In this document: positions 36,155 to 63,199 of the stretch, piece by piece
How the letters are laid out: the number at the start of each line of letters is the position of its first letter
Numbering within the stretch: the stretch's first letter is position 1
NCBI GenBank assembly: GCA_016934335.1
Contig: JAFGTC010000316.1
Location: 5,488-69,487, forward strand
DNA: 64,000 nt
Direction: 5' to 3'
Source: Candidatus Omnitrophota bacterium
GTDB taxonomy: Bacteria > Hinthialibacterota > Hinthialibacteria > Hinthialibacterales > Hinthialibacteraceae
Position numbers and translations under genes: made by a program
Notes under the pieces: model-generated
The model's database searches: none
Told to the model about the DNA's origin: nothing
What the model saw: only the letters and a program-made list of their open reading frames with translations

Positions 36155-39100
36155 ATGAGACAGCGGCAGCTTTTTTTTGTTTACTTTTTATTGATTTTCG
36201 CCACTCTGCACCGCGGGATGGATTCCTGCGCCGAAATGCGGAGCACCCGACACCATGACGCCTCTCATTTCGCGTCTGCATGGACGTCCGGTTTACCGAA
36301 TCAATCTGCAGATCCCCATTTAATCCGCTTGTTCGCCTGGACTTATCGCCGGGACGATTCCACTCAGCCGCCGGTTTTATGGCGGTTCAATCGCTTGGAG
36401 AAGCAACCCGAAATATCCTGGGGCGCTCTGCCGGAGGGGAGCGAGTATTCGAACATAACGGCGGCGCACGGACGGCTTTGGGTATATGTACAAAACGAAG
36501 ACGGGTGGAGCCTCTTTTCTGCCGGCATGAACGCGGAATCCGCCCAATGGCGCCCGGCGAGTTCCAATATCAATGAAAATATAGAAAGTTTCTTTCTCGA
36601 TTCTAACGCCGATCCCCTGTTGATTTTGGAGAAAAATGGGAAATGGTTCGTTCGGACGGGGGGTTTTACCGGCGGGGGGGAGGCGTTGCGATGGGATGCG
36701 ATGCGAGAGATTTCTCTGTTCGAAAAGAATCAATTGACGCGTGAGGCAAAAAAAGAGGATGCGGCGCGCGACATGGTCGGTGAATTTGACCTCCGTTCCC
36801 AAGCGATTCTGCTGGCGTTTTCATGCAAGGAAAACAGGCGGGATGCTGTAAAAATCCGCTATCGAATCAGCGCCGGCAAAACCCGGTCTTATGGCCCCTG
36901 GAGCGAACCGCTGCCCGACTCCGTCATCCAACTTAACCAGCGCGGACGTTACTTTCAATATCAGATTTCTTCTGCGCCGGCGAGCGGGCAAGACGCACTC
37001 ACCTTACCGAATTTGGAATTAATCTACACATTCGATGAGTCCGAACCGCAAAACGAAGCCAAGTCCGTCAAATCCGAAGGCCGGCCGGGAAAAGGCGGAT
37101 CGAGCGCCGGCGCCGGGTTGGGAGCAGCAGTAGGATCAAGCGGTCTTACGGCCGAGGCTGGCGCGGCGGGCGCCGCTGTTTTGGAAAACGCCGGCGATGG
37201 GATGACAAGCGCCGGCGCCGGAAGCGAATCGTCTGATTCTCCTGCAAAAACCGGCGCCGCCGATTCCGGCGATCCGGGAGCAAGTAATTCTCAGGATCAA
37301 ACGCCAGCCGCTTCGCCGGCTCAAGAAGAAAATCCATCTGAAATTGAATCCGACCGGCAGGACGATCAACAAGAAGCAAGCGCCACACTCTCCGGCGATT
37401 CCGCCCTGCAAGAAGAAGATTTTTCACAGGAAGATGCGAAAGAAAAAAATCCCGAAGAAGAGCGCTCAAACCAAACCGAGAACGGCGCATCCCTTCAACC
37501 TCCACCCAATGAACCGGACGCAGATGGTGATTCTTCAGAAGCATCTCCCGAAAGCGAACCGACCGATCCGCAAAGTGTTCCGGATGCGGATCCCGGCCAG
37601 CCCGAATCGACGCCCGACGCCGATCCTCGAAGCCCGGCGTCGTCTCCCTCGTCAAATCCTCCCCATTCTCCTCAAAACCAGCCATTATCCCAAGAGAATC
37701 CTCCTGACGGCGGCGTTGCAGACGATGAGAAAATAGGCGCCGGCAGAGAGACGAACGTTGAATCCGGCTTGAGTGATCATGAAGATCAAGAATCGTCAGC
37801 GCCGGCAATGGATAACCGGAACAAAGCGGGGAAAGGTAAAAAAACCACGGCAGGGCAAGAAAAAACAACGCCGTCATCCGGCATAAATGAAACCAATGAA
37901 TCAGCTGGAGATGCAAAAGAACACAACCCTACGCCGCCGGCGGCGAATCGAGATCAGCTGCAAACGAATCGCGAACCGGCGTCTTTGTCCAACGCATCTC
38001 CTCAAAAAGGCTTCACCGGCGCCAATCAACCGGGCGTTGAGAATACTATTCCACCCGGAGAAGAAGACGGCGCTTCAAACAATGGACATGCAAACTCATC
38101 CTTATCGCCCTCCGATTTCCGGGATCTTCCAAATTCAGCCGGCGAATCTTTGAACAGCCGCCCTGCAGCATTCGCTTCTTCAGGCGGAGCAAGTACAAAC
38201 GCCTCCCGGGTAAAGCAGGCCTCGCCGGAAATTTCGGAAGAAGGCTCGGGATCCAGCGGAACATTGGAAGGGACATGGAAAGAGAGGAATAAGTCATCCT
38301 GGCTGCTGCTCGTTCTTATCATACTTGCGGCGTCCTACGCCGCTTACCGCCTGATGCGCCAATCTCGCACGAAAGGCGCCCCTGTTGAAGTAGATGTTCA
38401 AAATGAAAATTGGCGCGAAGGATGGATTGAAGACCGCCAGGAGCAAAGCGGCGTCTGGGAGGCTGTTCTGCATTTCCATCCCGACGTTAAAGCGGCCAAT
38501 TTAAGCGGCGGCGTCCTTCTGCTCATGAATCAAAATCATGCCGTCAAAAAAGTATCGCTCCCCGATCTATGGTTCCCAAAACCGGCGGAAGAAGAAAACA
38601 ATCCGACTGAAGCCATAGTAAATTTAAAAGCACCAATCGACAGCGCGCAGATGGCGAAATACAGAAACAACTTATTTGTGTTCGGCATAGATTCTCACGG
38701 GCAGGAGAAAGCCCTGCACATTGCGCTTCCCGCCGGCGAAAAAGCAATGAAGGGCAGGAAGATTTCTCATCCAAGCGGATTGCAATCGATCCGCTCCCTC
38801 AAAGCAGACGGCGACATTTTATGGGCGCTGGGCGAAGCCCCGGACGGTCTTCGTGTTTTGGCCGCTTCCATGGGATTTTTAAAAGGGCGTGCCTGGCGCG
38901 AAGAATCCCCGGCCGCGTTGGATAAGGGAGAAATAATAGCGCTTTCCAGCGGCGAAGAAACGATGATCGCTGGAATTCCCGACAAGGATCGAGATCATTT
39001 GTGGATCTTTCAGCAGGAAAAAAACCGGCAAGGGCGATGGCGCGCGGCAGTCAAAACCCGCTTTAACCAAAAAAACGTTCTTCTTTATGCGGCCAGGAAT

Positions 39101-39373
39101 CGCTGCGTCTTGATCGAATCGACCAAGGAGGACGCCTCCATTGGAATTCATCTTTTCCCGCGAGACGAGCAAGGACGTTTTTCGACGCGGGCGGAAAATC
39201 ACGCTCCGGCGCCCCATGCGGGGAAATGGCTCGATCTGGAAATCGCCGGCGGCTGCCTCTACCTATTAGGCCGCGAGACATCCTCTGATCCAGAATCCAA
39301 CTCAGGGAGATTTTGTCTGCTGGCGGCGCGGCTTGGAAATTTATTTCAAGAGAATCAGCCGAAATCGAAATGA
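36155..39373 (+). CDS. 1072-aa single-pass membrane protein. From the N-terminus: signal peptide, a ~280-aa N-terminal domain, a ~400-aa acidic Pro/Ser/Asp/Glu-rich disordered region, a TM helix, and a ~340-aa C-terminal domain.
   Basis: Signal peptide LFFVYFLLIFATLH. Low-complexity stretch ...SEASPESEPTDPQSVPDADPGQPESTPDADPRSPASSPSS.... TM helix SSWLLLVLIILAASYAAYRLM near residue 710. No motif I can name. Confidence 0.6.
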   Translation: MRQRQLFFVYFLLIFATLHRGMDSCAEMRSTRHHDASHFASAWTSGLPNQSADPHLIRLFAWTYRRDDSTQPPVLWRFNRLEKQPEISWGALPEGSEYSNITAAHGRLWVYVQNEDGWSLFSAGMNAESAQWRPASSNINENIESFFLDSNADPLLILEKNGKWFVRTGGFTGGGEALRWDAMREISLFEKNQLTREAKKEDAARDMVGEFDLRSQAILLAFSCKENRRDAVKIRYRISAGKTRSYGPWSEPLPDSVIQLNQRGRYFQYQISSAPASGQDALTLPNLELIYTFDESEPQNEAKSVKSEGRPGKGGSSAGAGLGAAVGSSGLTAEAGAAGAAVLENAGDGMTSAGAGSESSDSPAKTGAADSGDPGASNSQDQTPAASPAQEENPSEIESDRQDDQQEASATLSGDSALQEEDFSQEDAKEKNPEEERSNQTENGASLQPPPNEPDADGDSSEASPESEPTDPQSVPDADPGQPESTPDADPRSPASSPSSNPPHSPQNQPLSQENPPDGGVADDEKIGAGRETNVESGLSDHEDQESSAPAMDNRNKAGKGKKTTAGQEKTTPSSGINETNESAGDAKEHNPTPPAANRDQLQTNREPASLSNASPQKGFTGANQPGVENTIPPGEEDGASNNGHANSSLSPSDFRDLPNSAGESLNSRPAAFASSGGASTNASRVKQASPEISEEGSGSSGTLEGTWKERNKSSWLLLVLIILAASYAAYRLMRQSRTKGAPVEVDVQNENWREGWIEDRQEQSGVWEAVLHFHPDVKAANLSGGVLLLMNQNHAVKKVSLPDLWFPKPAEEENNPTEAIVNLKAPIDSAQMAKYRNNLFVFGIDSHGQEKALHIALPAGEKAMKGRKISHPSGLQSIRSLKADGDILWALGEAPDGLRVLAASMGFLKGRAWREESPAALDKGEIIALSSGEETMIAGIPDKDRDHLWIFQQEKNRQGRWRAAVKTRFNQKNVLLYAARNRCVLIESTKEDASIGIHLFPRDEQGRFSTRAENHAPAPHAGKWLDLEIAGGCLYLLGRETSSDPESNSGRFCLLAARLGNLFQENQPKSK

Positions 39374-42908: not shown

Positions 42909-44303
42909 TTAGAACAGAGACCATTCCGAAACGGAGACCGGTTCGCCGATGTCGCCGATGACATACCGACCATATCCATAGATGCCGCCTTCCCAAAGAA
43001 TTTCACACGCGCCTTCAGCGGCCGTTGAAGGAACATGAACGTCAATTTCACCTTGCGTACCATGCCATTCCGATGTGGCAGCGGGATTTCCTTGGTCGTC
43101 CGTAGCGCCCAGATCATACAATTCAGTATCTTCCGTTGTATTAATTTTATAGTATGATATTATTTTGCCATCTTTTTCTTCCTGCCCGCTGACGTCATGA
43201 ACGGCCAGCCATCCCGGAGCAAAAACGCCGCCGTTGGCCCCATAACTATTCCAACTCGGTGTAGAGTAAGCGATAACATACTGCAAACCATCAGCGGAAT
43301 CCATGTCAGAAATAAACGATGTACGGTAGACATTATTAGGATCGAGACCAAGAGATTCCATATCTTCCGCCGAATATTTTTGAGCCTCCCACAATTCGGC
43401 ATCTTTTACTGCTTCTGTTTCAAAATCATACCAGCGATAAAAAGTTGTACCGGTTCCGCCGTCGCTTCCTGGATAAGTGGAAGCATAAAGAACTGGATCG
43501 AGGTTGACTCCACCATGAACGATGATTTTGCTGGCGCCGCCGCTAGCGTTGCCATATCCATTCGGTACATAGAAAGTTTGGGTAAAGTTAACGCCGTCGT
43601 CCGTCACCAATTTGCGGAAGCCGTGACCTTCCCGCCAAGTTTTACCGCCCGCAAAAATTACGGTATCCGCTCCGCTTCCCATGACTTCCACGTCACCCCA
43701 TCGCCACGAATAATATTGAGCTCCTCCAGAGCCGTCGATGCCATCCGCGGGTACTTCAAAAGCAACGGCAGGCTCTTCAAATCCGCCCTGACCATCCGGC
43801 GCATATCGCAAAATCATATTTTTGTAGCCGACAAAAATTACTCCATCTTCTGAAACTCCCCACTTAAAATAATAGCTATCGGGAGTGCCTCCACCTGCGA
43901 CATATGCATCACTGAGAGGATAAGGCGCAATTCCAACGACCAGGGCTATACCCATCGGTTGGCCTGTGGCAGGATCGATCCAGATCAAGGAACGATCGGG
44001 ATATTCTGCGGCCAGCGCCTCATCGGCGCCCTCAGCGCCTTCAACGATGCCGTTTTCGCGGATGCCAAGCAAAAGTCGCTGATCGTCATAGCGCTTCAAA
44101 CCGGAAAAAGAATCCGTAGGACTATCACCTTGAAACCAAGTGTTATCAAATGGATATCCATCTTGCACTTTCAAGATTTCTACAGGACTATTGCCGGATG
44201 TGTTGAGAAATTCCCAAATCGGCTCAATCTCCTGTGTGAATGCGCAGGGCGTCACTACGCCTGCGATTAATACAATGACAGCCATTCCAAATGCTTTTTT
44301 CAT
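42909..44303 (-). CDS. Secreted Asp/Gly-rich hypothetical protein. Paralogue of 8696..10102. Ends in EWSLF.
   Basis: Signal peptide MKKAFGMAVIVLIAGVVTPCAFTQ. Shares motifs with the 8696..10102 protein. Lies 142 bp upstream of the GTPase pair on the same strand. Confidence 0.6.
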   Translation of the reverse strand: MKKAFGMAVIVLIAGVVTPCAFTQEIEPIWEFLNTSGNSPVEILKVQDGYPFDNTWFQGDSPTDSFSGLKRYDDQRLLLGIRENGIVEGAEGADEALAAEYPDRSLIWIDPATGQPMGIALVVGIAPYPLSDAYVAGGGTPDSYYFKWGVSEDGVIFVGYKNMILRYAPDGQGGFEEPAVAFEVPADGIDGSGGAQYYSWRWGDVEVMGSGADTVIFAGGKTWREGHGFRKLVTDDGVNFTQTFYVPNGYGNASGGASKIIVHGGVNLDPVLYASTYPGSDGGTGTTFYRWYDFETEAVKDAELWEAQKYSAEDMESLGLDPNNVYRTSFISDMDSADGLQYVIAYSTPSWNSYGANGGVFAPGWLAVHDVSGQEEKDGKIISYYKINTTEDTELYDLGATDDQGNPAATSEWHGTQGEIDVHVPSTAAEGACEILWEGGIYGYGRYVIGDIGEPVSVSEWSLF

Positions 44304-44545
44304 CAAAACATCTCCTTTCAACAACAAGAATTGTTAATGAATTAAATTATATACTCAAAATTGATTAAGAAAAGTTATTCGAAGCATTTTTCAAGAAGCA
44401 TATGTCAACAAATCGATTTATTGTCCAAAAAAAATTTCGCTATAGACCGATTGTGATAATTATGGGAAAATACAAACATCCGATCTTCCCCAATTATTCT
44501 TGGCGGAGATTCAATCGAATTCAATGAATCAAGGAGAATGCAGAC

Positions 44546-45997
44546 ATGCAGAATGAAAATCGATTTTTCAAACCAATGATTGTATGGGCGAGCTTAATAG
44601 GGATTCTGATTGGGGGTCATTTGGCCGGCGCGGCGACCGTGACCGTCAATCCCGGCGACAGCATCCAGGCGGCCATTGATTCAGCCGATCCGGGCGATGA
44701 AATCATCCTGAACGCCGGCGTCTATGAAGAAGACATCAACATCGGCGATATGAATGCGCCGCTCAACAGAAAAGACAATATTACTCTCAAAGCCGCGGAC
44801 GGCGCCGATGTGGAAATTCATATTCCCAACTCTGCAAGCCGTCTTGAATTGCTAGGCGGCCTGGGCGCGGATTTCGGCCCGGCGGATCGCATGGGATTTT
44901 TGGTTTATGGAGACGGCGTAACAGTGGAGGGAATTTCCTTCACTCAACTGAGCGGAGAAGTTAATAATTTTGAAATCAGCGTCTTAGTCACCGTCATCAG
45001 CAACGATGTAACCTTCCGAGACTGCGAGTTCATCGGCGTCGGAGCGGAAGCGGCCGGCGACGCCGTGGGATTGGCCGTCACTCCCTTAGACGCCATCGCT
45101 CTTGATCAGGGACTGGGCGGTTTAGCGACCAATCTCACGGTGGAAGACTGCGTCTTCCATGATCTCGCCTACTCCTATGGAAACGCCAATTTTCTCCAGG
45201 AGTTAGGCGTTCCGGCCCCTTCGCCCGAAGCAACTCTTACAGGCTGTGAGTTTTATGACTGCGGGACATGCATCAACATGGATGACGGTCTGGCCACGCT
45301 CGTAGATTGTTATATTCACGACAACCAGGGAACGGGAGTCGACGCCTCCGACGACGGCGTAACCTTGATCAACTGCCGAATCGAAAACTGTCTGGAGCAC
45401 GGGGTCGAGATCAGCGACTCGGAAAGCGAAGACGACGAACCGCAGGAAAATCCGATCGTCACAATCGAGAATTGCCTCATTCTCAACTGCGGAACCGATA
45501 CGAACCATAATGGAATCAATTCCGAACATGGAACCATCACCGTGAAAAACACCGTCATCAGCGGCAGCACCGGACCCAATGTATTTTTCGAAACGGAAGA
45601 CGGCCGCATGACCACGGCGACTTTCGACCATTGCGACATTTACAATTCTTTGATCGGAACCGCCATCGGCACAACCGCCAGCCCCCAAGACGTCATCACT
45701 CTGACTATCACCAACTCCAACATCGTTGATTTAGACGGCATCATCAACGATGCCGGCGCCTTTTCGACCATTACGCTGGATTATTGCAATATCTTTGTCT
45801 CCGGAGAGCCTTACTTACCGGATCAGGAATTCATCACGGCGACCAATATGCTCTCAGCCGACCCCCTGTACGTCGATCCGGATAACGGCGATTTCACTTT
45901 GCAGCCCGGATCTCCCATGGCGACGGCAGGCCAGGGCGGAACATATATTGGTTCGCAAGGATTGGAGACTCGAACGCAAGGCTGGATGCTTCATTGA
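44546..45997 (+). CDS. Secreted right-handed parallel beta-helix repeat protein (pectate-lyase fold; possible polysaccharide lyase/hydrolase)
   Basis: Signal peptide. Motif NPGDSIQAAIDSADPGDEIILNAGVYEEDINI. Many short PbH1-like repeats: ENCLEHGVEISDS, ENCLILNCGTD, NTVISGSTGPNVFFE. Confidence 0.65.
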   Translation: MQNENRFFKPMIVWASLIGILIGGHLAGAATVTVNPGDSIQAAIDSADPGDEIILNAGVYEEDINIGDMNAPLNRKDNITLKAADGADVEIHIPNSASRLELLGGLGADFGPADRMGFLVYGDGVTVEGISFTQLSGEVNNFEISVLVTVISNDVTFRDCEFIGVGAEAAGDAVGLAVTPLDAIALDQGLGGLATNLTVEDCVFHDLAYSYGNANFLQELGVPAPSPEATLTGCEFYDCGTCINMDDGLATLVDCYIHDNQGTGVDASDDGVTLINCRIENCLEHGVEISDSESEDDEPQENPIVTIENCLILNCGTDTNHNGINSEHGTITVKNTVISGSTGPNVFFETEDGRMTTATFDHCDIYNSLIGTAIGTTASPQDVITLTITNSNIVDLDGIINDAGAFSTITLDYCNIFVSGEPYLPDQEFITATNMLSADPLYVDPDNGDFTLQPGSPMATAGQGGTYIGSQGLETRTQGWMLH

Positions 45998-50668: not shown

Positions 50669-52036
50669 TCAGGGCGCCGCGATTGCCCGTTGGACGCATT
50701 CTTCGACAACCTGTAATCCTTCCATCAACGCTTCTTCGTTGATGCACAGGGGTGGATTGATCTTGATCGCTCCCCCGCCGACGCCCACCGGAGCGAAAAG
50801 CATCACCCCGTTCTCCACGCAGTTCCAGACGATGCGCGATGCCAGTTCCTTATCCGGCGTCGTGGTTCCCGGCTCGACGACTTGAAGGGCCGCCACCAGA
50901 CCTTTGCCGTCCACTGCGCCGATGCGTCCGTTGGATCCCGCCATGATTTCGCGGCATCGCTGCAAAAGAGGCGCTTCCAAACGAGCGGCGTTCTCGATCA
51001 ATCCCTCTTTTTCAATAATATCGATGCTGGCCAGCGCCGCCGTGCAGCAGAGCGGATTGCCCGAATGGGTGCTGGTCATCTCGCCCGGGCCGTAGAGATC
51101 CATCACGTCCGCCCGGCCGATCACCGCCGAAAGCGGCAGGCCGCTGCTGATCCCCTTCCCGCAGCAGATCAGATCGGCGGAGACGCCGTAATGCTCGAAC
51201 CCAAACCACTTGCCGCAGCGGCCGAAAGCGGCCTGCACTTCATCGAAGATAAGCAGGACGTCATGTTCGTCGCACCATGCGCGCAAACGCTGCGCATACT
51301 CAATCGGCATAAAGGCGGCGTTGGCGCCGGGGTAGGTTTCCACCATCACGCCCGCAATCTTCTCGCCGCTCAAGTTCTTTTCCTCCAGCGATTTCAGAAA
51401 CAGATCGAACGATCGGTCGGTCACCCGGAAGCCGTCCGGATAGGGAACTTGAACCATGTCGGGATCCAAGTTCACGATCCAATCTTTCTGGGCCTGAAAT
51501 CCGCCGGCCATCTGTGCGCCCAGCGTGCGGCCGTGAAAATCGTTGATGAATCCCACGATGGTTATTTTAGAAGCGCCATGCCTGCGCTTGCCGTAGGTGC
51601 GCGCCAGTTTAACGGCGCACTCGGTCGATTCCGCACCGGTCGTCAGCAGAAACACTTTCTCCAAGGGAACCGGCGCCAGAGATGCGAGTTTCTTCACCAA
51701 TTCCACACGCGGCTGATTGACGAAGCAGTAACTATGCAAGAGTCCGCGATCGATCTGCGCATGCAGAGCGTCGCGCATCGCTTTGGGGCCGTGGCCGGCG
51801 TTGGTCACCAGCACGCCGCTGGAAAAATCAATCCACCGGTTGCCGTACGCATCCCACACCGAAAAATCCTCCGCGCGATCCCAGACAATCGGCGGCTGCC
51901 CGCTCATGGAGCGCGGCTCATGGCGGATCAGTTTTTCCAAAAGATCAACGCTCTCCGGAGCGGGAACGGGCGTCGCGATCCGGCGGTATTTTGTTTCCAA
52001 TTGTGCTAAATTTCTGTCGGGCATATCTGTCTCCAA
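50669..52036 (-). CDS. Class III PLP-dependent aminotransferase (aspartate aminotransferase superfamily)
   Basis: 455 aa. PLP Lys region ICCGKGISSG. Segments VLLIFDEVQAAFGRCGKWFGFEHYGVSADL and VTNAGHGPK. Antisense ORF 50882..52009 rejected. Confidence 0.85.
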   Translation of the reverse strand: METDMPDRNLAQLETKYRRIATPVPAPESVDLLEKLIRHEPRSMSGQPPIVWDRAEDFSVWDAYGNRWIDFSSGVLVTNAGHGPKAMRDALHAQIDRGLLHSYCFVNQPRVELVKKLASLAPVPLEKVFLLTTGAESTECAVKLARTYGKRRHGASKITIVGFINDFHGRTLGAQMAGGFQAQKDWIVNLDPDMVQVPYPDGFRVTDRSFDLFLKSLEEKNLSGEKIAGVMVETYPGANAAFMPIEYAQRLRAWCDEHDVLLIFDEVQAAFGRCGKWFGFEHYGVSADLICCGKGISSGLPLSAVIGRADVMDLYGPGEMTSTHSGNPLCCTAALASIDIIEKEGLIENAARLEAPLLQRCREIMAGSNGRIGAVDGKGLVAALQVVEPGTTTPDKELASRIVWNCVENGVMLFAPVGVGGGAIKINPPLCINEEALMEGLQVVEECVQRAIAAP

Positions 52037-52215
52037 ATTTCCATGAACGATGTTTGTTACTTACGATGCTGAACATCCGATTCGCCGCGGCATGAAATCC
52101 GAAAGCGCTTCCCCATGAAAAATGGCGCATTGGACAAATCAAATCAAGTCCAATGCGCCTTTCCATCCTATAAATACGACAAAAATATTCTGTCAAACCG
52201 GCAAGAACGCCTCAA

Positions 52216-54963
52216 TCAGTACAGCATGAAATTATCCACAGAAGTCACATCGCCTCGCTCCAACACGTAGATTGCTTGAATCTCCGCATTGGTCAGCCCC
52301 CGATCATATACGCGCACTTCATCAATAATCCCGGGGAAATAGCGATCCGCGCCGCCTTGGACGCTCATGCCGATGCGGAATTCTTGATCGGACAAGCCTT
52401 CTTCGGCCGCCGTGTCAATCAAAATGACGGTTCCATTGTCATTGGTGCCGGATCGTTGATCCAGCAGTCCATCTACATAATGTTGAAAATCAACTACATA
52501 TTGTCCGCCTTCGGGAAGAACGGAAGCGATGAAATGCCATTCTCCATCGTTAACAATCGTCGTACCTATATTGAATGTGCCTTGTATCTCGGTTCGGATC
52601 GCGCCCACCGTCCCGTTGCTCGCAGTGTTGTTAATGCGGAAATGCTCTTTTTGACCGTTGCCGGAGGACAATCCCCAACTGAGAATGCCGTGCGTGTTGG
52701 TCGCGGTTGATTGGATCCAGCACATGATTGTGCGCGGCGCGCCGCCTGCGATGCCATACCAGCCCGGGATATAGAGGCCGTCATCGCCGTCAAATTCCAG
52801 CGCCGTTCCTTGGACGCCTTCAACCCACTGCGGATCGCCCGCCCAAATTTCCGCATTTCTCCCTTGCCCGGAAGAGTCGGCGGCGGTCACGCCTTCTCCT
52901 TCATCAAAGGTCCAATGAGCGATCAAGCCGGACGTGACATCCTGTTGGTCGAGAATGTCTTGGGGCAGCAGCCCGGCAATCCTTATTTCCGCATCGCCGG
53001 AAATTTCGGCGTTATTCAATAAGCCCGAAAACTGCCCGACGATAATCGGATCAGTCGTGCTGGAAGGAACAGTGAGATCGTAGGTCAATTGAAATTCGCC
53101 GGTCTGATCCTCCACCGTCCACTCAATATCTCCATCGGCGTTCATGGCGGCCTCTCCCGCGCTGGTCTGGATATTCGAAACGGCCCAGCCTTCGGGAGGC
53201 GTCTCCACAACCGATATGGCGCCGGCTTCCCGCGTAAATACATTCACGCTGACGTTCAATACATCCTCGAACGTCGGCTGACCGTCGCCCGCAAACGACG
53301 CGACTCGAATCCCGCTCAGATCGATCAGATCGATTTCCGTATCAATGAAATAAAGATCGCTCAGCGAACCGTTCTCGTGCGCCGTCACCGCCAATCCGGC
53401 GTAAACCGGATCTTCCAAGTCTTCCAGAGTGATAGAGCCCATCGAGACTCGATCGCCCGCCTGATTGAGCATGTAAAAACTGACGATCTTGCCATTCCGC
53501 TCGATTTCGATATCGCCGAATTGGTCGCTGCTGCTGGCTTGAACCGTCACGGACGACTGGCCCTCGGCGGTTCGCGCCTCCGAAGAAACTGATAAGTCAG
53601 CATCCGTTAGAACAAAGATATATCCATACGACGAACCGGCGGAAAGACCGTTCCGAATCATGATCCCGCCTTTGGCGGAAGTGCTTGTACTGGATCCCGG
53701 ATCAATCCAGGCGTTGCCCTTGATAGTAAACGGACCGGAAAATTCGCTGAACAAGAAATGGAATCCGTCGGCGGTTCCCCACACGTCGGCGCCGCTTCCT
53801 GTGACGAGATATTCTTCTGCATCGCTGTTATATTCCGCGTTGCCGGCCGCGGAGACGCTTCCGATATCGGCGTGGAAATCAAACTCGCCGACGGCCCCCT
53901 GCAAAACAGTGATTTGCAGATCCCCATCGGTGATGAGTCCATTGAAATTCCCCGAAAAAACATTGGCTTCCGCGCCGTCCGCCGGCTCGGCGGTATAGGA
54001 AACCGATGAAACGGCGGAAGTAAGATTCCAGGTAATCACGCCGCCGTCCGCCGCGCCGCCCTCGCTGATGCCGCCGGCCGTCCATCCTTCGGGAAGGATT
54101 TCAACGAGCGCGCCGTCCGCCGGAGTGGGAATATCCAATGTCACTTCAACAGGCATTCCCGGCGCTGCAAAATCTGCATGCAGGGATCGAACGGCAATAA
54201 TTTGATTTACGTTTGCGTCTTCATACAGGGCTTGAATGTCTTCCTCGCTCAACGCCCGGCTGTATATGCGAACTTCATCGATGGCGCCGATATAATATTG
54301 ATCGGCGGCGCCCTGCAGGCGGCTGCCAAACGTCAAATCGGCGCCCGTATCCGTCGCCGTCATCACCTCGACCGTGTCGCTGCCGGTCCCGCTCATCGCT
54401 TCTTCGACGCCGTCGACATAATGAACAACGTCCTGCATGAACTGTCCTTCAAAAACGCAGACTGCATGATGCCATTGCCCGTCGTTGATGGGTGTAGAAC
54501 CTATGATGTAACTCCCTTCGATCTCCGTCCGTATTGCGCCGACCGTTCCGTTGCTCGAATCATGGTTGAGGCGCGTATGCCATTTCTCTCCCGTAGTGGA
54601 GAGCCCCCATCCGACAATTCCATTGGAGGCGTCCGCCGCCCAATCGGTCTTGATCCAATAACTGATGGATCGCGGCGAATTGCCGCCGATCCCTTTCCAT
54701 GGAACCGTGACGTCGTCGTCGCCGCTGACGTAAATCCCGTTGCCAAGTTTACCCGCATACCAGATGGGTTCGCCGTTGCGAAACGACCCATCGCGGCCGT
54801 TCGACGAAGAATCTTGCACCACCGTTCCTTCACCCTCATCGAAATTCCAATAGCCTTCCAATCCATTCGCCAGATCCTGACTTATTGCGCAGGGAGCGGC
54901 GACAAGACAAAGGGCTATCACCCACAGAATAGGCGTCTTCTTATCTCGCATTCTGCTTTTCAT
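52216..54963 (-). CDS. Secreted protein with two concanavalin-A-like/LamG lectin domains (internal duplication)
   Basis: Signal peptide. N-terminal LEGYWNFDEGEGTVVQDSSSNGRDG...SYWIKTDW...NGTVGAIRTEIEGSYIIGSTPINDGQWHH. Repeated as LIAHWTFDEGEGVTAADSSGQGRNA...MCWIQST...NGTVGAIRTEIQGTFNIGTTIVNDGEWHF. Confidence 0.7.
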   Translation of the reverse strand: MKSRMRDKKTPILWVIALCLVAAPCAISQDLANGLEGYWNFDEGEGTVVQDSSSNGRDGSFRNGEPIWYAGKLGNGIYVSGDDDVTVPWKGIGGNSPRSISYWIKTDWAADASNGIVGWGLSTTGEKWHTRLNHDSSNGTVGAIRTEIEGSYIIGSTPINDGQWHHAVCVFEGQFMQDVVHYVDGVEEAMSGTGSDTVEVMTATDTGADLTFGSRLQGAADQYYIGAIDEVRIYSRALSEEDIQALYEDANVNQIIAVRSLHADFAAPGMPVEVTLDIPTPADGALVEILPEGWTAGGISEGGAADGGVITWNLTSAVSSVSYTAEPADGAEANVFSGNFNGLITDGDLQITVLQGAVGEFDFHADIGSVSAAGNAEYNSDAEEYLVTGSGADVWGTADGFHFLFSEFSGPFTIKGNAWIDPGSSTSTSAKGGIMIRNGLSAGSSYGYIFVLTDADLSVSSEARTAEGQSSVTVQASSSDQFGDIEIERNGKIVSFYMLNQAGDRVSMGSITLEDLEDPVYAGLAVTAHENGSLSDLYFIDTEIDLIDLSGIRVASFAGDGQPTFEDVLNVSVNVFTREAGAISVVETPPEGWAVSNIQTSAGEAAMNADGDIEWTVEDQTGEFQLTYDLTVPSSTTDPIIVGQFSGLLNNAEISGDAEIRIAGLLPQDILDQQDVTSGLIAHWTFDEGEGVTAADSSGQGRNAEIWAGDPQWVEGVQGTALEFDGDDGLYIPGWYGIAGGAPRTIMCWIQSTATNTHGILSWGLSSGNGQKEHFRINNTASNGTVGAIRTEIQGTFNIGTTIVNDGEWHFIASVLPEGGQYVVDFQHYVDGLLDQRSGTNDNGTVILIDTAAEEGLSDQEFRIGMSVQGGADRYFPGIIDEVRVYDRGLTNAEIQAIYVLERGDVTSVDNFMLY

Positions 54964-55261
54964 GGTTCATTCCTCCCCTATAGGTATTTACCACTGATTA
55001 AAGAATCCTGCGATTCTACTTCTACAAAAGAATCTCTCAGATTCGATAGACCGAGTCAATAGCCGCAGAACGTTTGTTAAAAATTCAGGAGATTGGCTTT
55101 AGAAAAGCGAGTTGAACAGATTCTGGATTTAAGACATGATGAAGGGTGATGACAGAACGATTGCACCGGAAAATTTTTTGGCAAAAATCTCGTTGTTTTT
55201 GCAGAGTGTGATACACTGTATTCCATGGAATATCTGTAATGAAGCGTTGAGGATACAAACT

Positions 55262-58200
55262 ATGAAATTATTCGTATTTAGAAATATGGCGCGGCTGATT
55301 AAAAATGGGAGTGAGGGCTTCAAAGTACGGAAAAAACAGCGATTACTCATCCGGCTGCTCAGCCTCTTTTTTCTATTGACATCCCCCGCCCTCTGGGCGC
55401 AAGACCAGCCCCCCCGCATGGATATAGGCTACGGAAACATCTCCTCCGCTGCGTTCTCGATGTTTGGACATAATTTAATATATACTCCAGATTCAACAAA
55501 AATTGCTTTTTCTGGTGATAAAGGCGTATATATCTATGAATTTGATAAGAACAATTATGAATTAACGGCAGGCGCTAAATTATTATTAGAGGATACGACG
55601 GTTAATGACATAGTTTTTACAAAAGCAATGTTGCCGGATGATCAAGAACGACTGTTATTAGCATGCGCGGATGGTGTCATTCGGGTTTATAATCCTGAGA
55701 CGGGCGAAATAGTACAAATTTTGGAAGGTCACAGCGGTTCAGTATTAAAAATAATCGAAGGCTCTCTTCCAAACGAATATGTATCAGGTGATATCGATGG
55801 CAAGATAATTACATGGAAAATTCAAAGAACTAAAGAATTTTCGTTATATAAGAATATTGGAATTGGCAAACCCATTAAATCGCTTGACGCCTTCTTTGGA
55901 AATAATAATTACTGGATTATTGTTTCAACTCAAAACAGCCTCGAATTAAGAAATACATTAACAGGAGGCATCATTGATTCGCGGACGGAAACTGATTACA
56001 TCGATGACATGAAGTTTACGCAAGACGGAAAGTATGTATTGATTGCCGGCGATAATTCTGCCAAATTGCTTGACGCCTCCAATTTAAATAACAATCCTAT
56101 AATATCTTACGGTATCAGTTCAATAACAGAAATGAAGGAAATCCGATCTGTAGATTTCTCTTCTGACGAGTCGAAAGTTATCACGGGAGACGAATCCGGC
56201 GTCTATCGGATTTGGAATCGAAACAACGGGGCCACTCCAGTCTTAACAAATCAATCTCATTACAGCGCGATCCACACTTCCATATTTTCACCCGACATTG
56301 AAACATACGATTACTCACTCATCACAGCATCCAAAGAAAATGCATTTTTATGGCGATCATCTTCGGATTACCAAAATACCATCGAACGCTTCCCCTTCTG
56401 GGAGCATGACGACCATATCACGGATATTTGTATCACAAACGATAACCAATTTCTAATAACATCCGGAGCGAGCCGCACTATAAAATTATGGAAAGTAGAT
56501 TTAACTATTCCTTCATCGGAACTTTGGGGCGTCATTACAAAACATAGTAATGAAATCTCATCGTTTTCATACTCTCATTTAGAAGGATTTTCCAGTTCTT
56601 TAGTAACCTGCGATAAAGGAGGATTTCGCTATCTTTGGGATCTCTCCTCTCATCAGCCTTATATGGGTAAAGAGATTAATAATAAATATGGTAGCCTTTT
56701 TTCCGCCGACGAAGGGAAAAATGTTTTTTTATCTAATGTCTATTCTAACAAAGTTAACGGCGAACAATATTTATTGTCAGTGGGTTATACAGGCGAATAC
56801 GAACATAATGTCGGTAAGTTTCACTTAAACAGTCTGACAAGCGCCTCAGTAAACTTAAATGAAACAGATATTCAAGGATTATTAACAAGCGGTGATATTT
56901 CTCCAGACGGCAGCAGGTTTGTCACAGCGACAAAAGATGGAAAGATAAAATTATATAGCACAAACTCAGTATTGGCGCTCAATAGAATAAAAATTTCCTC
57001 CCCAGGCGATGTGTCTATTACAAGATTTATTGATGATGAAACAATATTTGTTGGAAGAAATACTGATTTTTATATTTTCCAATTCACTCATGATACAAGT
57101 ATCCTTTTACATCAGGAAACATTACAATCCAGGGGAATATCCTTTTCAAAAATAAAAAACATCGCCGCTCTACTAACCGGTGATCATGAAGTCCAGTTGA
57201 TCGATGTCACACCCGGCAGCGACAGCCTCCCGGGAATATATAAGGAAGACCTTTCCTCCCTTCCGAAACACAAGCAGGATTCCGAAAAAATCACCGCCAT
57301 CTCTCTGTCGGAAGACGGCAAATACTTAGCCCTGGGCCGGCAAAACGGCGCCGCTTCCGTCGTGGATATAGAAAGTCTCTGGCCCCAAGCCGCCTCCACC
57401 CCCACGCCGGTACCGCCAACCGATACGCCAGTTCCGCCAACCGATACGCCTGTACCGCCAACCGATACGCCCATTCCGCCAACCGATACGCCCGTACCGC
57501 CAACCGATACGCCCGTGCCGCCAACCGATACGCCGGTTCCACCGACCAATACGCCCATTCCGCCAACCAACACGCCGGTTCCTCCGACCAACACGCCGGT
57601 TCCACCAACCAACACGCCGGTTCCGCCGACCGATACGCCGGTTCCGCCGACCGATACGCCGGTTCCACCGACCAATACGCCCATTCCGCCAACCAACACG
57701 CCCGTTCCGCCAACCGATACACCGGTTCCACCGACCAACACGCCGGTTCCGCCGACCAACACGCCCACACCTACGCTGACATTCACGCCCAGCCCTACTG
57801 ACACGCCTTCGCCGACGCCTCCTCCCTCCGCCCCGCAATGGATCAGGGATATCCCCGACATTCGCTTGCTCCAGGGGCAGGCGGCCGAAGCGATTCTCGA
57901 TTTAGACGATTACGTCTACGATGCGGATACCCCGCTGAACGAACTGCAATGGAAATATTCCTCCGCGGACGGCATAGCGGCGTCCATCGATTCCGAACAC
58001 CGCCTCTTCCTGCCCGCGATCGAAACTACCGGCGAAGGCGGAACCCTGACGATCCAAGCCTCGGACGGGGCCAATCAAATCGAACAGCAGGTTCGCGTCA
58101 AAACTTCGTCGTTCCGAATCAAAACCAACCGGGAACTGCAATGCCCCATCGCGGTCATCCCCGGAAAAATAACCTATACCAGCCCTTACCGGCTGGACGA

Positions 58201-59644
58201 TCTATTGGAAAAAATCGACGTGGATTATCCCGACGTATTTCTATGGTCGATCCTGGAGCCGCTGCCCGAAGGCATCCGAAGCGTTTCGATTCACGAAGAC
58301 ACATCGTTCACCGTCTTATCGGAAAACGAATGGGCCGGGCCGCCGGTTCAAATCGCCTTCGTTGTGCGCCGCGCCGAAGCCACGGCCACGCCGACCGGTA
58401 CGCCGACTCCCGTCGCAACCAATACGCCCACACCAACCTGGACGCCCACTCCAACCTGGACGCCCATTTCGGCGAGTACGCCCACACCGACGCTGCCCAA
58501 GCCTCCATCCCCCACTCCGGCGGCGCCCACGCCCACGCCGACGCCTTACGGCATCGACCGATTCACCTTCCCCGAAATCGTGTTCAGCGAAACGCGGCTG
58601 GGGCCGCTCGATTGGATCGTAGAGCCTTCGGGCCGCCTGGCGGCCGCACATTACGACGCGGGCGCGATCGGCTTTTACACGCGCGATGGTCGGGAATATA
58701 CGGAAGCCGCCGGCATCGAAGCGCAGTTCGGTCTGGCGAACATCGCCATGGACGACTTCAACGGCGACGGCCACATGGATCTTTACGCGCTCAACGTGAT
58801 TCAAGAAACCCTCGGCGTCTACATCGGCGATGGAAGCGGGGGCTATGCCTTGAGCGCCTCGCTCGATGTGAGCGAAGCGCAGATCCCCGACATCTACAGC
58901 CTCAACAATGGCGTACGCTATCGATCGCTGCTAGTGGGACGAATCAATGGAGACGAAAAAGCCGACGCCGTCATTCGAGGAAGACAAACGATCCTCATCG
59001 CAATCGCCGGCGACGACAACCGGCTTCACATCGAACAGCGCATCGAGTTGGACGGCGTCAGCCGATTCATCAACGGCGGCGACTTCGACGGCGACGGCGA
59101 CATCGATTTTCTGCTCGGCTTGCGCTCCGCCTCGGGACAGCAGCAAATTCGAATTTACAAATCGGAAGACGGGCAATTTTCGCTGGCGCAAACCCTTCGC
59201 ACCGACTTCGAATTGGAAGGCAACAATCCGCTGCAAACAGTTTTATACGACTGGAACGCAGACGGCCGGCTCGATCTGAGCGTGTTGGTCTTCACCGGCG
59301 CCGTCCAGCGATACATCAACGGCCAAGACGGCCTGTTCACCCGCATCGACGACATCGTCGCCCTTCCGCTGGGCGAGGTTGTAGCGATCGATCTGCCCGA
59401 TCTCGATAACGACGGCGTTCCCGAACTGATCGGCCTGCACCGCAGCCAGAAAGGACTCGCACTGGTTTTAGTATGCTGCGATGGCTATGCACAGCAGAAA
59501 TCGATCCCGATCAGCGACGACGCCCCCGAAGGCGAGCGCTACGCTCTGCACTGCCTGGACGCCGATCTCGACGGCGACCTGGACATCCTATTCACGCGCA
59601 GTTATCACGACGACCTGGTCTGGATGGTCAACGGCGTCAATTAA
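55262..59644 (+). CDS. Giant secreted protein of 1461 aa: low-GC WD40/beta-propeller-like N-terminal half, Pro-Thr tandem-repeat linkers, FG-GAP (integrin-alpha/VCBS-like) C-terminal half
   Basis: Signal peptide [17 protein letters not shown]. Seventeen 7-aa PT repeats. C-terminal Ca-binding FG-GAP-like loops [72 protein letters not shown]. Start placed at the Met at 55262. Confidence 0.7.
57402..57771 (+). repeat. Perfect/near-perfect 21-bp tandem repeat, about 17.5 copies, encoding (P-T-D/N-T-P-V/I-P)n inside the giant gene
   Basis: Direct reading gives ccgccaaccgatacgccngttccgccaaccgatacg..., consensus ccgccaaccgatacgccngtt. The antisense ORFs 57184..57861, 57291..57770 and 57326..57838 are artefacts of this repeat. 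Confidence 0.9.
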
Positions 59645-59659
59645 AACGCTGAAGACCAG

Positions 59660-61288
59660 TCAGTTCATTTTCACGATCATCAAACCGCGCGCCGGGACGG
59701 CGATCTCCGCTTTTCCCGGCGCGGCGGATATAAAGCCGCTTGACTCGGGCAGACAGAGAAGCGGCGACAACTGAGTCTTCGCGGATTTTTTCCTCAAGAC
59801 CGCCTTGATTTCCGCATCGTTGAAATTCTCGATCCCATAAACATCGTCGCCGAACATATACAAAGCGACGCGGGTCGGCGCATCGAATTCCAAGCCGAAC
59901 GGCGCCAGCAAAGCGCGGCGCATCGCACCAAGCCGCTCTTCCGGAAGATTCATCAAATCCCAAAAATCATCGGGAACGTCCAGAATCATCGAATCGTCCA
60001 GCTGCTCTTTCAAAGACAAAGGCAGCTTTTCCGCCAGGCGTTTTGTGACGAGAACCGGCTTTTGATCCGCAAGCATTTGACCTAATTTCTTTGCCAGTTG
60101 ATCGTCTTTGAGAGAATGATACGGGAGAAACGCCGCGGGAGCGTCCGGATCGATCTCCACGGCGGGCTTTAACGGCAGCCCCAGCATGCCGATGAAATCA
60201 TAGATGTAGCGGTCGCCTTCCCCTTCGCTGTTGGGGATCTTGGGCGCGTGGATGCCGCGAATCTCTTTCCCGCGCACAATCTTCGCCAGATCAAAAAGTT
60301 TCGGCAGTTCATCCCGCAGCGCTCGAATGTTCTCCGGCCCGTTGCTTCTGACAAGAGAGCCATAGCAAAACAAAAGAGCTTCCCTGGCGCCGCCGAGAAT
60401 GGTTTGACGCGCCTGCTCGAGATAGGTTTTGGGGGATGTGCCGTACGGATCGAACCAGCCGCCGCCGCACTTCTCGCCTCCCAAAACGCCCAGCCAGCGC
60501 ATGATGAAAAACGCTTCGTACTGCGCCTTCCGCCCCCAGCGCTCCGAATCGGGATCGCGGGTCTCGGTTCCCACCCAAATCTTGTCGAACATCTCGCTCT
60601 GCCGCACGACCTCGTAGCCCCTTGAGTGAAAACCGTCATACCACTGAGGATATTTGATGATAATCTTCACGCCGGGATTGGCCTGGCGGGCGGGATCGAT
60701 CACGAAACGCTTCGATACATCGACCAGCATGTCGCAGCGGAAATCATCCCACGACCGCTCGCCCTTCGCTTTCTTGCAGTCTTCGCACTCACACCCCGTC
60801 GCGAAGAAGTCGTCGATCATCACTTCATCGAAAAGCGAAGCGCTGTACGTAAAAACACGCTTCAATGTTTCCAGCGACTTTGAATCGCTGAAACAAGGAA
60901 AGATCCAGCCGTTCACGCTGTCCCGGCCGATGTTGGTCGTCGTAATGCAGCCGCTGACCTCGATCCCTTCCTCTTGAAATTTCTTTTTCGCGTTAAGCAG
61001 CACGTCTCGATCCGCCGTGTAATTTCCGCGAAAGACTTCCAGATAGACATGCGTCACAGCCGTGTCTTTGCACCACTGAACCGCCTCCTGCAGCGAATCG
61101 GGCTGCGCAAGAAAATCGCGTACGTCCTGCGCAGTAAACAAAGTGGAAAATCGCATCGCGTCCCGGTTGGCCTGCGCCTGCTGCCATAAATCGGCGGAAT
61201 TCGCGACGCCCCCGAACCAGACCGGCAACAGCAGAATTATTGACAAAACACGGTTCTTCAAACAATAAATAGAATGAGTTTTTACCAT
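59660..61288 (-). CDS. Secreted hypothetical protein (possible carbohydrate-active enzyme), 542 aa
   Basis: Signal peptide VLSIILLLPVWFGGVANSA. Coding-like composition. I recognise no family. Confidence 0.5.
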   Translation of the reverse strand: MVKTHSIYCLKNRVLSIILLLPVWFGGVANSADLWQQAQANRDAMRFSTLFTAQDVRDFLAQPDSLQEAVQWCKDTAVTHVYLEVFRGNYTADRDVLLNAKKKFQEEGIEVSGCITTTNIGRDSVNGWIFPCFSDSKSLETLKRVFTYSASLFDEVMIDDFFATGCECEDCKKAKGERSWDDFRCDMLVDVSKRFVIDPARQANPGVKIIIKYPQWYDGFHSRGYEVVRQSEMFDKIWVGTETRDPDSERWGRKAQYEAFFIMRWLGVLGGEKCGGGWFDPYGTSPKTYLEQARQTILGGAREALLFCYGSLVRSNGPENIRALRDELPKLFDLAKIVRGKEIRGIHAPKIPNSEGEGDRYIYDFIGMLGLPLKPAVEIDPDAPAAFLPYHSLKDDQLAKKLGQMLADQKPVLVTKRLAEKLPLSLKEQLDDSMILDVPDDFWDLMNLPEERLGAMRRALLAPFGLEFDAPTRVALYMFGDDVYGIENFNDAEIKAVLRKKSAKTQLSPLLCLPESSGFISAAPGKAEIAVPARGLMIVKMN

Positions 61289-61444: not shown

Positions 61445-63199
61445 TTATCGAGGGATCAGCCAGACGGTTTGATAGGGCGCCAACATTAATTTCCCTTTTT
61501 TCAATGGCCGCGTTTCATTGCGAATCAAGTCGACGCATTCGCCCCGTTGGTCAAGCAATGGAATGCGCCCGAAAATCGGCGCCGATTTTCTTTCCGCCGT
61601 AACGTTGCTGATTGAAATAATCGCCTCGCTTTCGTCCGGCGAAATTCGCTGAAATGCAAAAAATGCATCGCCCAGTTCGAAGATCTGCTGCCCCCCGTCC
61701 GGATGGAAGGCGGGGTGTTCGGCGCGCAGTCTCAAAAGCCGCGCCAGTTCGCCGAAAACATGTGCGGCGGTCGACTTGGGATCATGAAGAATTTCCAACA
61801 ACTCGCTCTCGCTCCACTTCCTGCGATTGATGGAGCGCACCTGCCCGGTGCGATTGACGGCGGCGTAATCGTTGCGCGTCGCCGTCAGGCTGTGAAAATA
61901 CAATGCCGGAATACCCTTCAATCCCAGCGGAATAATTTGAGAGCAGAGAAACCGTTGCGCATGCAGCGGCCAATCGGGCCGTCCCGGTTCGGAAAGCGCA
62001 TCGAAATACGTGATGTTGAGTTCATAGGGGCTTTCCCCTCCGTCAGGATTGGTTTTGGTTGAAACGAATCCGCCGCGATGATGAACGCTCTCGATCAAGG
62101 AGCCGAATTCCTCGGCGGGGAGCAGCCCCTCCAAGGGCCGCACGCCGATGCCATCGTGCGAAGCGGTGAAATTCAAAAATGCGCAGCCGGCGGGCGGATC
62201 CTTGAGATCGCGGGCCCATTGCGTCAGAGAAGCCGCGCTTCCCTTCAGCAACGTATGCAGCAAAAGGGGCGGCAGGCTGAACTGATACACAATCTGGGCC
62301 TCATCGCCGTCGCCGAAATAACTTACATTCTCCTCGTGCGGAACATTGGTTTCGGTAAGAATGAGAACTTGAGGAGCGAGCATCTCGAGAAAATCGCGAA
62401 ACAGTTTGACAATGGCATGAGTTTGAGGAAGATGGACGCACGATGTGTTCAGCTCTTTCCACAAGTAAGCAATGGCGTCGAGGCGGACTACACGCACCCC
62501 TTGCGTAATAAAAAACATAAGAATATCGAGAAATTCAAAAAGAACGTCGGGGTTGGCGAAGTTGAGATCGATTTGATCGGAGCTGAATGTCGTCCAGACA
62601 TGCCGCAGACCCGCCGGCGTTTGAACGGGCGTCAAGAGCGGGCTGGTGCGCGGGCGAACGACGGAATCGAGATTCGTCTCGGGATCGACCTCGATGAAAT
62701 AATGACGCCCCGGCGCGATTCCATTCAGATAATCTCGATGCCAGGCGCATTGACTGGAAACATGATTGAGCACCAAATCGAACATCATGCGGAACGATTC
62801 CGCAATCGACCGAATATCGTCCCACGAACCCAATTCAGGATCGACCTGCTTATAATCAATCACCGAAAATCCGTCGTCGGACGAAGAGGGGAAAAAAGGC
62901 AGAATATGAATCGCGCTGACGGCGCCCTTCAAATGATCGTCCAAAAATCGCTTCAATACGACCAGCGGCTTTTCGGGATGATCTTGACCGCCGTCTTTCT
63001 GAACCATGTCGCCATACGTGATCAGCAGGCTGGCGCGCTGATCCCATGGCAATTCGAATCGGGGAAAATCGACGCCGACGCCGTAGCGCCCCACCAGCAT
63101 GGCCAGCCGCTCCATGCACTCGAACGCCCGATAATCGTATAATTCCTTCATATGCTGCTGAATTCGGGCAAGATATGAACTGGCAAAGGTTTTGATCAT
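61445..63199 (-). CDS. GH13 sugar phosphorylase of the sucrose-phosphorylase family (sucrose / glucosylglycerate phosphorylase-like)
   Basis: Segments AIHILPFFPSSSDDGFSVIDYKQVDPELGSWDDI, FDLVLNHVS, GVRVVRLDAIAYLWKE, ILTETNVPHEEN and FTASHDGIG. Confidence 0.8.
   Translation of the reverse strand: MIKTFASSYLARIQQHMKELYDYRAFECMERLAMLVGRYGVGVDFPRFELPWDQRASLLITYGDMVQKDGGQDHPEKPLVVLKRFLDDHLKGAVSAIHILPFFPSSSDDGFSVIDYKQVDPELGSWDDIRSIAESFRMMFDLVLNHVSSQCAWHRDYLNGIAPGRHYFIEVDPETNLDSVVRPRTSPLLTPVQTPAGLRHVWTTFSSDQIDLNFANPDVLFEFLDILMFFITQGVRVVRLDAIAYLWKELNTSCVHLPQTHAIVKLFRDFLEMLAPQVLILTETNVPHEENVSYFGDGDEAQIVYQFSLPPLLLHTLLKGSAASLTQWARDLKDPPAGCAFLNFTASHDGIGVRPLEGLLPAEEFGSLIESVHHRGGFVSTKTNPDGGESPYELNITYFDALSEPGRPDWPLHAQRFLCSQIIPLGLKGIPALYFHSLTATRNDYAAVNRTGQVRSINRRKWSESELLEILHDPKSTAAHVFGELARLLRLRAEHPAFHPDGGQQIFELGDAFFAFQRISPDESEAIISISNVTAERKSAPIFGRIPLLDQRGECVDLIRNETRPLKKGKLMLAPYQTVWLIPR

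Follow-up and report, generated by a model that had tools for sequence, protein, structure and literature searches.

The 64,000-nt stretch of contig JAFGTC010000316.1 analyzed here (hereafter the window) carries a large gene on its forward strand that encodes, in order, a predicted signal peptide, two WD40 β-propellers, a Pro-Thr (PT) linker, two β-sandwich domains, a second PT linker, and an FG-GAP propeller. The front of this gene lies in a tract of low guanine-plus-cytosine (GC) content, which an earlier note, made from the sequence alone, had put down to either recent acquisition and fusion of a foreign domain or an assembly chimera. The gene is real, a genuine single gene of a Hinthialibacterota-like bacterium, and its promoter-proximal low-GC tract of 2.2 kb is long-standing, being found at the same position in all three known lineages. 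Moreover, the follow-up analysis has produced a new result: the gene is a sharp mosaic, the first propeller of which has diverged far more than its flanks. A suspected misassembly or recent fusion is thus replaced by a documented, conserved compositional step within one gene and a recombination-like mosaic. The best reading, to which a probability of about 0.5 is given, is that the WD40 part is a variable binding head swapped by recombination on a conserved stalk, in a mosaic gene of old standing.

A compositional step within one reading frame

According to the list of open reading frames (ORFs), the frame is uninterrupted over 1502 codons (55136-59644, +). The likely start is 55262, which gives 1460 aa and a stop codon and was chosen because it aligns with the only close database protein (P0001) and with the orthologue in L003, from a third metagenome-assembled genome (MAG). 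Exact-sequence look-ups of the full protein with each of three starts (55136, 55262, and 55286) returned no match. The proteins of the flanking genes are recorded at NCBI as MBN2330170 and MBN2330172, and the coding sequence between them is presumably annotated with a different start.

In windows of 300 nt, GC stays at 0.33-0.46 from ~54950 to 57250 and at 0.55-0.66 over the remainder of the gene, and windows of 100 nt inside the tract range from 0.25 to 0.51. Maximum-likelihood segmentation into three segments gives the tract a GC of 0.378, versus 0.543 to its left and 0.572 to its right, with a log-likelihood gain of 118.6. Both analyses confirm that a single 1502-codon frame holds a real GC step, as the earlier note had stated. 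The step, however, does not fall where it had been placed: the rise comes at ~57160-57200, in the last WD40 blades and ~75 codons ahead of the PT linker, not after it. The left edge is intergenic, so that the tract covers not only the front half of the gene, rightly described as low in GC, but also the region upstream of it. Given these positions, the edges of the tract are not domain boundaries. Nor is the rest of the window uniformly GC-rich, since it has 52.6% GC overall with AT-rich intergenic dips; its other stretches with GC below 0.42 reach at most ~625 nt and are mostly gene ends or lie between genes.

The composition was compared with that of the 37 other genes in the window, in which GC is 0.540±0.027 and GC at third codon positions (GC3) is 0.625±0.059, with a minimum of 0.436. 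In the WD40 part, GC at the first, second, and third positions is 0.42, 0.37, and 0.375, respectively, and the corresponding values in the FG-GAP part are 0.66, 0.36, and 0.73. An index modeled on the codon adaptation index (CAI-like) is 0.588 in the WD40 part versus 0.739±0.030 (minimum 0.660) in the other genes, bearing out the codon-adaptation check that had been suggested; the C-terminal parts score 0.746-0.764, and the FG-GAP propeller is host-like (CAI-like 0.764 with the GC3 given above). The tract lies ~5 standard deviations under the other window genes for both GC and this index. The encoded residues shift as well, with FYMINK residues (Phe, Tyr, Met, Ile, Asn, and Lys) making up 0.313 of the WD40 part versus 0.241±0.030 in other genes, and GARP residues (Gly, Ala, Arg, and Pro) 0.171 versus 0.277±0.026. 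Amino-acid composition as the sole cause of the low GC is ruled out because GC3 and the codon choice at conserved residues shift too.

The relatives carry the same step. Logan contig L026 is 100% identical to window positions 51158-57553 and ends in the PT repeat, thereby spanning the left tract edge and the junction from WD40 to PT. L001, from a Candidatus Hinthialibacter MAG (GCA_049975625.1), shows the same synteny of a divergent LamG neighbor and the WD40 gene, with a drop in GC from 0.57 to 0.39 and a 21-nt PT repeat at the contig end. L003, whose MAG comes from another study, holds the full architecture from signal peptide to FG-GAP propeller in one ORF of 1590 aa, with a PT linker that lacks periodicity; the best homologues of both halves therefore sit together in one gene of an independent assembly. 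In addition, both flanks of the gene match GCA_049975625.1 (LamG, 83% identical; the downstream 542-aa gene, at least 90%). Homologous low-GC tracts occupy 1353-3771 of L001 (GC 0.393) and 2431-4484 of L003 (GC 0.459), the dip being weaker in the latter (GC 0.459 versus 0.57; GC3 0.52 versus ~0.62), and the WD40 part has GC3 values of 0.375 (window), 0.362 (L001), and 0.52 (L003). The proportion of synonymous differences (pS) between the window and L003 is 0.73-0.84, that is, saturated. Since the synonymous divergence (dS) of propeller 2 is ordinary and GC3 is nearly equal in the window and L001, the low-GC state predates their split. The fused architecture is conserved in these sequences and ancestral to the small clade.

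The front half does look foreign in that its composition is atypical for the genome, but it is not a recent arrival, as the relatives share the tract. The same fused architecture was indeed found in them, but not the uniform composition that the note had coupled with it, the step being shared instead. The nearest relatives of each half belong to the same small clade, so there is no sign of the differing taxonomic affinities for which the note had proposed a check. The names on the closest relatives are those of Candidatus Hinthialibacter sp. (phylum Hinthialibacterota/OLB16); the NCBI label for the source MAG of the window is 'Candidatus Omnitrophica bacterium' (proteins MBN2330161, MBN2330170, and MBN2330172; locus tags JXR73_), and phylum OLB16 was once placed within Omnitrophota (PMC9324843).

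Two other places in the window deviate in composition. The gene at 42909-44327 (-), which encodes a predicted secreted protein of 472 aa without a Pfam match, has the lowest GC3 of the 37 other genes (0.436) and is a milder outlier; it adjoins an AT-rich stretch at 44047-44671 where GC goes down to 0.30. The AT-richest spot apart from the tract is at 995-1612, where 300-nt GC falls as low as 0.297; it occupies the gap before the gene at 1589-2623 and overlaps the 3' end of that gene.

A mosaic head on a conserved scaffold

When the window protein is compared with that of L001, identity changes abruptly at aa 68/69 and 377/378, delimiting segments with identities of 0.60, 0.35, and 0.86. The second change point adjoins the boundary between the two propellers in the AlphaFold2 (AF2) model. 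Propeller 1 is 35% identical between the window and L001, 35% between the window and L003, and 30% between L001 and L003, so that the three are roughly equidistant; propeller 2 is 86% identical between the window and L001, and each of these is 45% identical to L003. By the method of Nei and Gojobori (NG86), propeller 1 compared with L001 has a pS of 0.72, a saturated dS of ~2.5, a nonsynonymous divergence (dN) of 0.70, and a dN/dS of 0.28. Propeller 2 (dS 0.53, dN 0.068; last blade, dS 0.50) and the flanking LamG gene (dS 0.63) show ordinary vertical divergence. In propeller 1, synonymous divergence is thus raised 4-5-fold as well, which argues against simple positive selection in place: the alleles of this segment coalesce further back in time, and positive selection on the protein is not enough to account for them. 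Either the segment was replaced through recombination by a distant allele in one lineage, or old allele classes have persisted. Both propeller 1 alleles are AT-rich, with a GC3 of ~0.36.

Under the favored reading, the WD40 head, with its two seven-bladed propellers, would be a variable ligand-recognition module, as the domain types suggest. Diverged relatives would exchange it by homologous recombination, through crossovers that fall in the conserved 5' region and close to where the two propellers meet, and its alleles would either originate in an AT-rich pool or be maintained there. A conserved scaffold, serving as stalk and base, would then be made up of the spacers, the β-sandwich domains, and the FG-GAP propeller, and other proteins carry different heads on the same C-terminal scaffold. 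Because the mosaic shows that alleles are exchanged here or persist over long times, the reading we favor for the AT-richness is repeated exchange with AT-rich alleles from a pool yet to be sampled. What we infer here is that the protein is exported and has a binding function, that recombination is the cause, and where the AT-richness comes from.

A number of observations weigh against this reading. The third-position skews of the tract (A3/(A3+T3) 0.497; G3/(G3+C3) 0.346) match those of the other plus-strand genes in the window (0.493±0.051 and 0.41±0.05, respectively), and such host-like skews agree better with a long stay in this genome than with newly imported DNA. Propeller 2 is AT-rich yet not hyperdivergent, and replacement of propeller 1 alone therefore fails to explain the whole tract. 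When 1.84 billion representative proteins were searched in full with HMMER, P0001 (63% identity) was the only close relative, followed by generic multi-WD40 proteins at 25-30% identity; neither a donor lineage nor an extra allele was found among them. Scans of genome, metagenome, and viral collections, together with word-indexed searches, added only L003: the single-protein scans of genomes and metagenomes gave no match, the alignment-based metagenome scan, the viral scan, and the profile search gave no new relatives, and the alignment-based genome scan returned, besides L003, 22 irrelevant loci that were driven by PT repeats and came mostly from Chloroflexota-type MAGs. Furthermore, the known lineages are only three, with the L001 sequence ending at the PT repeat, and it is from domain types only that a function is suggested.

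A 14-nt element, TGTGATACACTGTA, occurs once upstream of each orthologue (L001, 1664-1677; L003, 2566-2579), 42-55 nt before the start codon in the window and 42-70 nt across all three lineages. It is kept in all three despite saturated synonymous divergence and sits, in the window and L001, inside a perfectly conserved block of ~44 nt. As the element is shared by the three lineages, the 5' end of the gene is orthologous too. Neither the rest of the window nor 25 further loci contained another copy, Rfam gave no match in the 5' region, and promoter and terminator scans performed at chance level; the element is probably a promoter or operator element.

The protein itself is modular, in line with the earlier note, whose quoted motifs, WD40 and FG-GAP domains, PT repeat, and second PT linker are all present (Table 1). 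The N-terminus looks like a Sec signal peptide, with a basic n-region and a hydrophobic stretch followed by QD, an outline that is kept in L001 and L003, and the protein would accordingly be exported. To our knowledge, a signal peptide ahead of WD40 propellers is unusual among WD40 proteins. PF00400 scores 71.2 bits (cutoff 27), and many families of WD40 propellers match aa 165-750 of the 1502-aa frame. The AF2 model of this half is all-beta with ~54 strands and fits two sets of seven blades meeting near aa 380, ~27 strands (i.e., seven blades) lying before that point, with a mean predicted local distance difference test (pLDDT) score of only 64.7 and low values over model residues 380-490. 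PF13517 (FG-GAP_3) scores 80.3 bits (cutoff 26.9), in three stretches of the last 350 aa; the FG-GAP propeller is modeled with a pLDDT of 70-90, and its Foldseek matches in the PDB are seven-bladed propellers (best E-value 1.4e-11). The middle β domains have no significant Pfam or PDB sequence match but are conserved in L003 and in five database proteins (P0097-P0101). In four of these (P0098-P0101), the whole C-terminal module, comprising the β-sandwich pair, a PT linker, and the FG-GAP propeller, recurs behind unrelated heads, which upholds the claim of a modular architecture. Tandem Repeats Finder (TRF) detects a 21-nt repeat in the first linker, with 17.2 copies as assembled (57404-57765) and the heptad PVPPTDT/N, and a matching 21-nt unit terminates both L001 and L026; an 18-nt repeat at 58424-58466 is assigned to the second linker.

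Table 1. Positions of the gene, its predicted parts, and the low-GC tract in the window
Feature	Position	Strand	Basis
Coding sequence, 1460 aa + stop (likely start)	55262..59644	+	ORF list, start alignment, Pfam, AF2 models
Low-GC tract: intergenic region, signal peptide, propeller 1, most of propeller 2	54941..57162	+	Three-segment likelihood segmentation
14-nt element TGTGATACACTGTA, one copy upstream of each orthologue	55207..55220	+	
Predicted Sec signal peptide region (aa 1-47)	55262..55402	+	Read from sequence
Propeller 1 (aa 69-377), hyperdivergent segment	55466..56392	+	Identity change points, NG86, AF2
Propeller 2 (aa 378-712), low-GC to ~57162	56393..57397	+	Regional identity, dS, AF2
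PT linker 1	57398..57931	+	TRF, sequence
Two all-beta domains (aa 891-1085), ~195 aa	57932..58516	+	AF2 all-beta, pLDDT 45-83
PT linker 2 (aa 1086-1135)	58517..58666	+	Sequence, repeat scan
FG-GAP/VCBS-type seven-bladed β-propeller (aa 1136-1460)	58667..59641	+	Pfam, AF2, Foldseek

Other explanations and comparable systems

The explanation that stands up best beside exchange, although still rather unlikely, is that the low GC has been maintained in place, the tract resting at an AT-rich equilibrium of its own while long-lasting balancing or diversifying selection drove the divergence of propeller 1. Two causes are conceivable. The tract may have escaped GC-biased gene conversion or selection because hyperdivergent alleles recombine poorly and mutation is AT-biased, and a framework of GC-biased gene conversion for bacteria has been published (PMC4450053). 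Alternatively, AT-richness may itself be selected, for example because a silencing or regulatory protein binds there or because it affects how the 5' half of the mRNA behaves. The dip at a homologous place in all three lineages speaks for such maintenance, given that the window and L003 are synonymously saturated and a passively ameliorating import should by then lack its composition; so do the GC3 of ~0.36 in both propeller 1 alleles despite a saturated dS, the host-like strand skews at third positions, and the inclusion of the promoter region and the conserved 5' element in the tract. It is harder to reconcile with propeller 2, which diverges normally and presumably recombines yet is equally AT-rich, with the lack of any other gene segment in the 64 kb that behaves alike, and with the fact that no silencer or regulator was identified. 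Polarized counts in the tract (26 changes from A/T to G/C, W>S, versus 25 in the opposite direction, S>W) look like equilibrium but are rejected as evidence and are uninformative here, as a saturated outgroup yields ~1:1 whatever the truth.

A single ancient acquisition of the WD40 head from a low-GC donor, followed by slow and uneven amelioration that has gone further in L003 and by a fast-evolving propeller 1, is improbable. It would account for the graded dip in GC3 across the window, L001, and L003, and a rough two-state calculation, fed with the 23% synonymous difference at third positions in propeller 2, allows an ancestral GC3 of ~0.26 at the split of the window and L001. With the synonymous sites of the window saturated relative to L003 and, in propeller 1, relative to L001 as well, third positions should nevertheless already reflect the resident regime; they have turned over fully and GC3 is still well below the host value, hence the poor fit of a single passive import. 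Faster protein evolution is no explanation for a dS in propeller 1 that is 4-5 times that of the flanks, and donor-like sequences are absent from the databases searched.

Far less credible is the explanation first offered in the earlier note, in which a low-GC propeller was recently acquired by horizontal transfer and the Pro-Thr linker joined it to an FG-GAP gene already resident. The strongly atypical composition and codon usage of the front half would fit it, as would the parting of modules by PT linkers and the occurrence of the C-terminal module with other heads. However, L003 has the same fusion across saturated synonymous divergence, and L001 has the low-GC head in synteny with an ordinary dS in propeller 2, the low GC of which predates the split from L001. 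Moreover, the compositional edges, intergenic on one side and in the last WD40 blades on the other, lie away from the linker, and no tRNA, flanking direct or inverted repeat, or other mobile-element signature was found in the window. An assembly chimera joining two genes or genomes at the Pro-Thr repeat can practically be dismissed: the 362-bp tandem repeat of 21 nt does exceed short-read length, with L026 and L001 ending inside it and its copy number unverified, but L003 has the best homologues of both halves in one ORF with a non-periodic linker, the frame is intact across the repeat, both flanks are of the same lineage, L001 shares the synteny, and two junctions would be needed, the left one of which is confirmed at 100% identity by L026.

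Several known systems were considered as well. A recently acquired genomic island was rejected: although the composition is atypical, the locus is syntenic in L001, the whole gene is present in L003, and mobility signs are absent. The variable regions of diversity-generating retroelements are much shorter than ~930 nt, which is the length of the variable segment here; with no template-like second copy within the 64 kb either, a target of such an element was also rejected. Indeed, paralogous fragments, an orphan cassette, or a second copy of any part of the gene were not found anywhere in the window.

In behavior, the nearest analogue is an Rhs gene. Rhs genes are described as a single ORF in which a conserved, GC-rich core is followed by a variable, AT-rich extension subject to replacement by recombination (PMC7259588; PMC2935791, 'C-terminal displacement'). 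The gene resembles those of Rhs/YD polymorphic toxins in the sharp internal compositional step within one ORF and in the variability of the AT-rich part. It differs from them in several respects: no YD/RHS Pfam match was obtained for it, its variable part is an N-terminal WD40 propeller instead of a C-terminal toxin, neither an adjacent immunity gene nor an orphan cassette lies in the 64 kb, the downstream gene encoding a convergent 542-aa protein, and its GC-rich part is host-like with the AT-rich part as the outlier. Membership in the Rhs/YD group is therefore excluded, given the absence of YD repeats and of an immunity gene and the N-terminal position of the variable part.

Mosaic genes with hypervariable and often low-GC segments, which recombination or balancing selection maintains, include those for the target-recognition domains of HsdS in type I restriction-modification systems, the central domains of flagellins, and O-antigen loci. 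The present gene has in common with them conserved flanks around a low-GC segment that is far more diverged, synonymous sites included, but it represents a different protein family, is known from three lineages, and has a low-GC tract larger than its hyperdivergent segment. With bacterial WD40 and FG-GAP/VCBS proteins it shares scores above the Pfam thresholds (PF00400 and PF13517) and, in the models, a β-propeller fold for the FG-GAP part and probable β-propellers for the WD40 half; unlike other proteins of this kind, its WD40 half has one close relative in the protein databases, plus L003 from a DNA scan. The likeness is closer to the four proteins with the recurrent C-terminal module (P0098, P0099, P0100, and P0101, labeled 'VCBS repeat-containing'), which have the same β-sandwich pair with an IPDLRLL...LDL.DYV.D.DTP...L.W motif, PT linker, and FG-GAP propeller, and in which a PT linker likewise joins the C-terminal module to an N-terminal head. 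Their heads, in contrast, are unrelated and not WD40, and the P0099 gene is uniform in composition (GC3 0.57-0.65). Beyond the three orthologues, no protein was found that combines a WD40 head with this C-terminal module. The gene belongs to the broad class of mosaic, modular secreted repeat proteins. Heptad-like TPVPPT Pro-Thr linkers of this kind also occur in many MAGs (loci L004-L025), mostly of Chloroflexota lineages such as Caldilineaceae and Anaerolineae; these are cases of linker convergence or low complexity, not of homology to this gene.

Surroundings of the gene and implications

The divergent neighbor on the left (52216-54963, -) encodes a secreted protein of 915 aa with two Laminin_G_3 domains. 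Its copy in L001 (1-1392) is syntenic, with 83% aa identity and a dS of 0.63, and is broken by a scaffold gap of 10 N. Upstream of the L003 orthologue, the LamG gene is absent; the region at 1051-2250 of L003 has a very strong excess of A over T (skew +0.26 to +0.43) at 54-60% GC and contains only implausible low-complexity ORFs on the minus strand. On the right, the convergent 542-aa gene (59660-61288, -) has no match in the copy of Pfam used, and adjoins a gene of the GH13 α-amylase family (61445-63199). Fragments of its orthologue on L029, a contig of the L001 assembly, bear a precomputed PF28584 'GH_cat' label, and the protein is possibly a glycoside hydrolase; L029 stops short of the big gene. 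The downstream context in L003 differs, consisting of genes for a prepilin-type N_methyl protein, a polytopic membrane protein, and an ABC ATPase. Elsewhere in the window, 36155-39373 (+) encodes a protein of 1072 aa that belongs to no Pfam family and stands alone in its cluster at 90% identity; ~450 of its residues form a disordered stretch in which Ser, Pro, Asp, Glu, and Ala are abundant, and after this stretch comes a transmembrane helix, SSWLLLVLIILAASYAAYRL.

A more daring possibility, which is put forward tentatively and is weaker than the favored reading, is that propeller 1 is a trans-specific hypervariable recognition cassette, the deep allele classes of which are kept or exchanged among Hinthialibacterota populations, with the promoter-proximal tract held at an AT-rich equilibrium in which the remainder of the genome has no part. 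If this is true, the cassette would be a new type of system for surface or extracellular variation, found in a phylum of which little is known, and its locus would be a natural test case for the persistent AT-richness of hypervariable loci. The practical value of the finding is modest. If the conserved step and the mosaic are confirmed in more genomes, the gene would provide a marker of strain-level variation in an uncultured phylum (Hinthialibacterota/OLB16) and a clean test of how low GC persists, whether by repeated import or by local escape from GC-biased conversion or selection.

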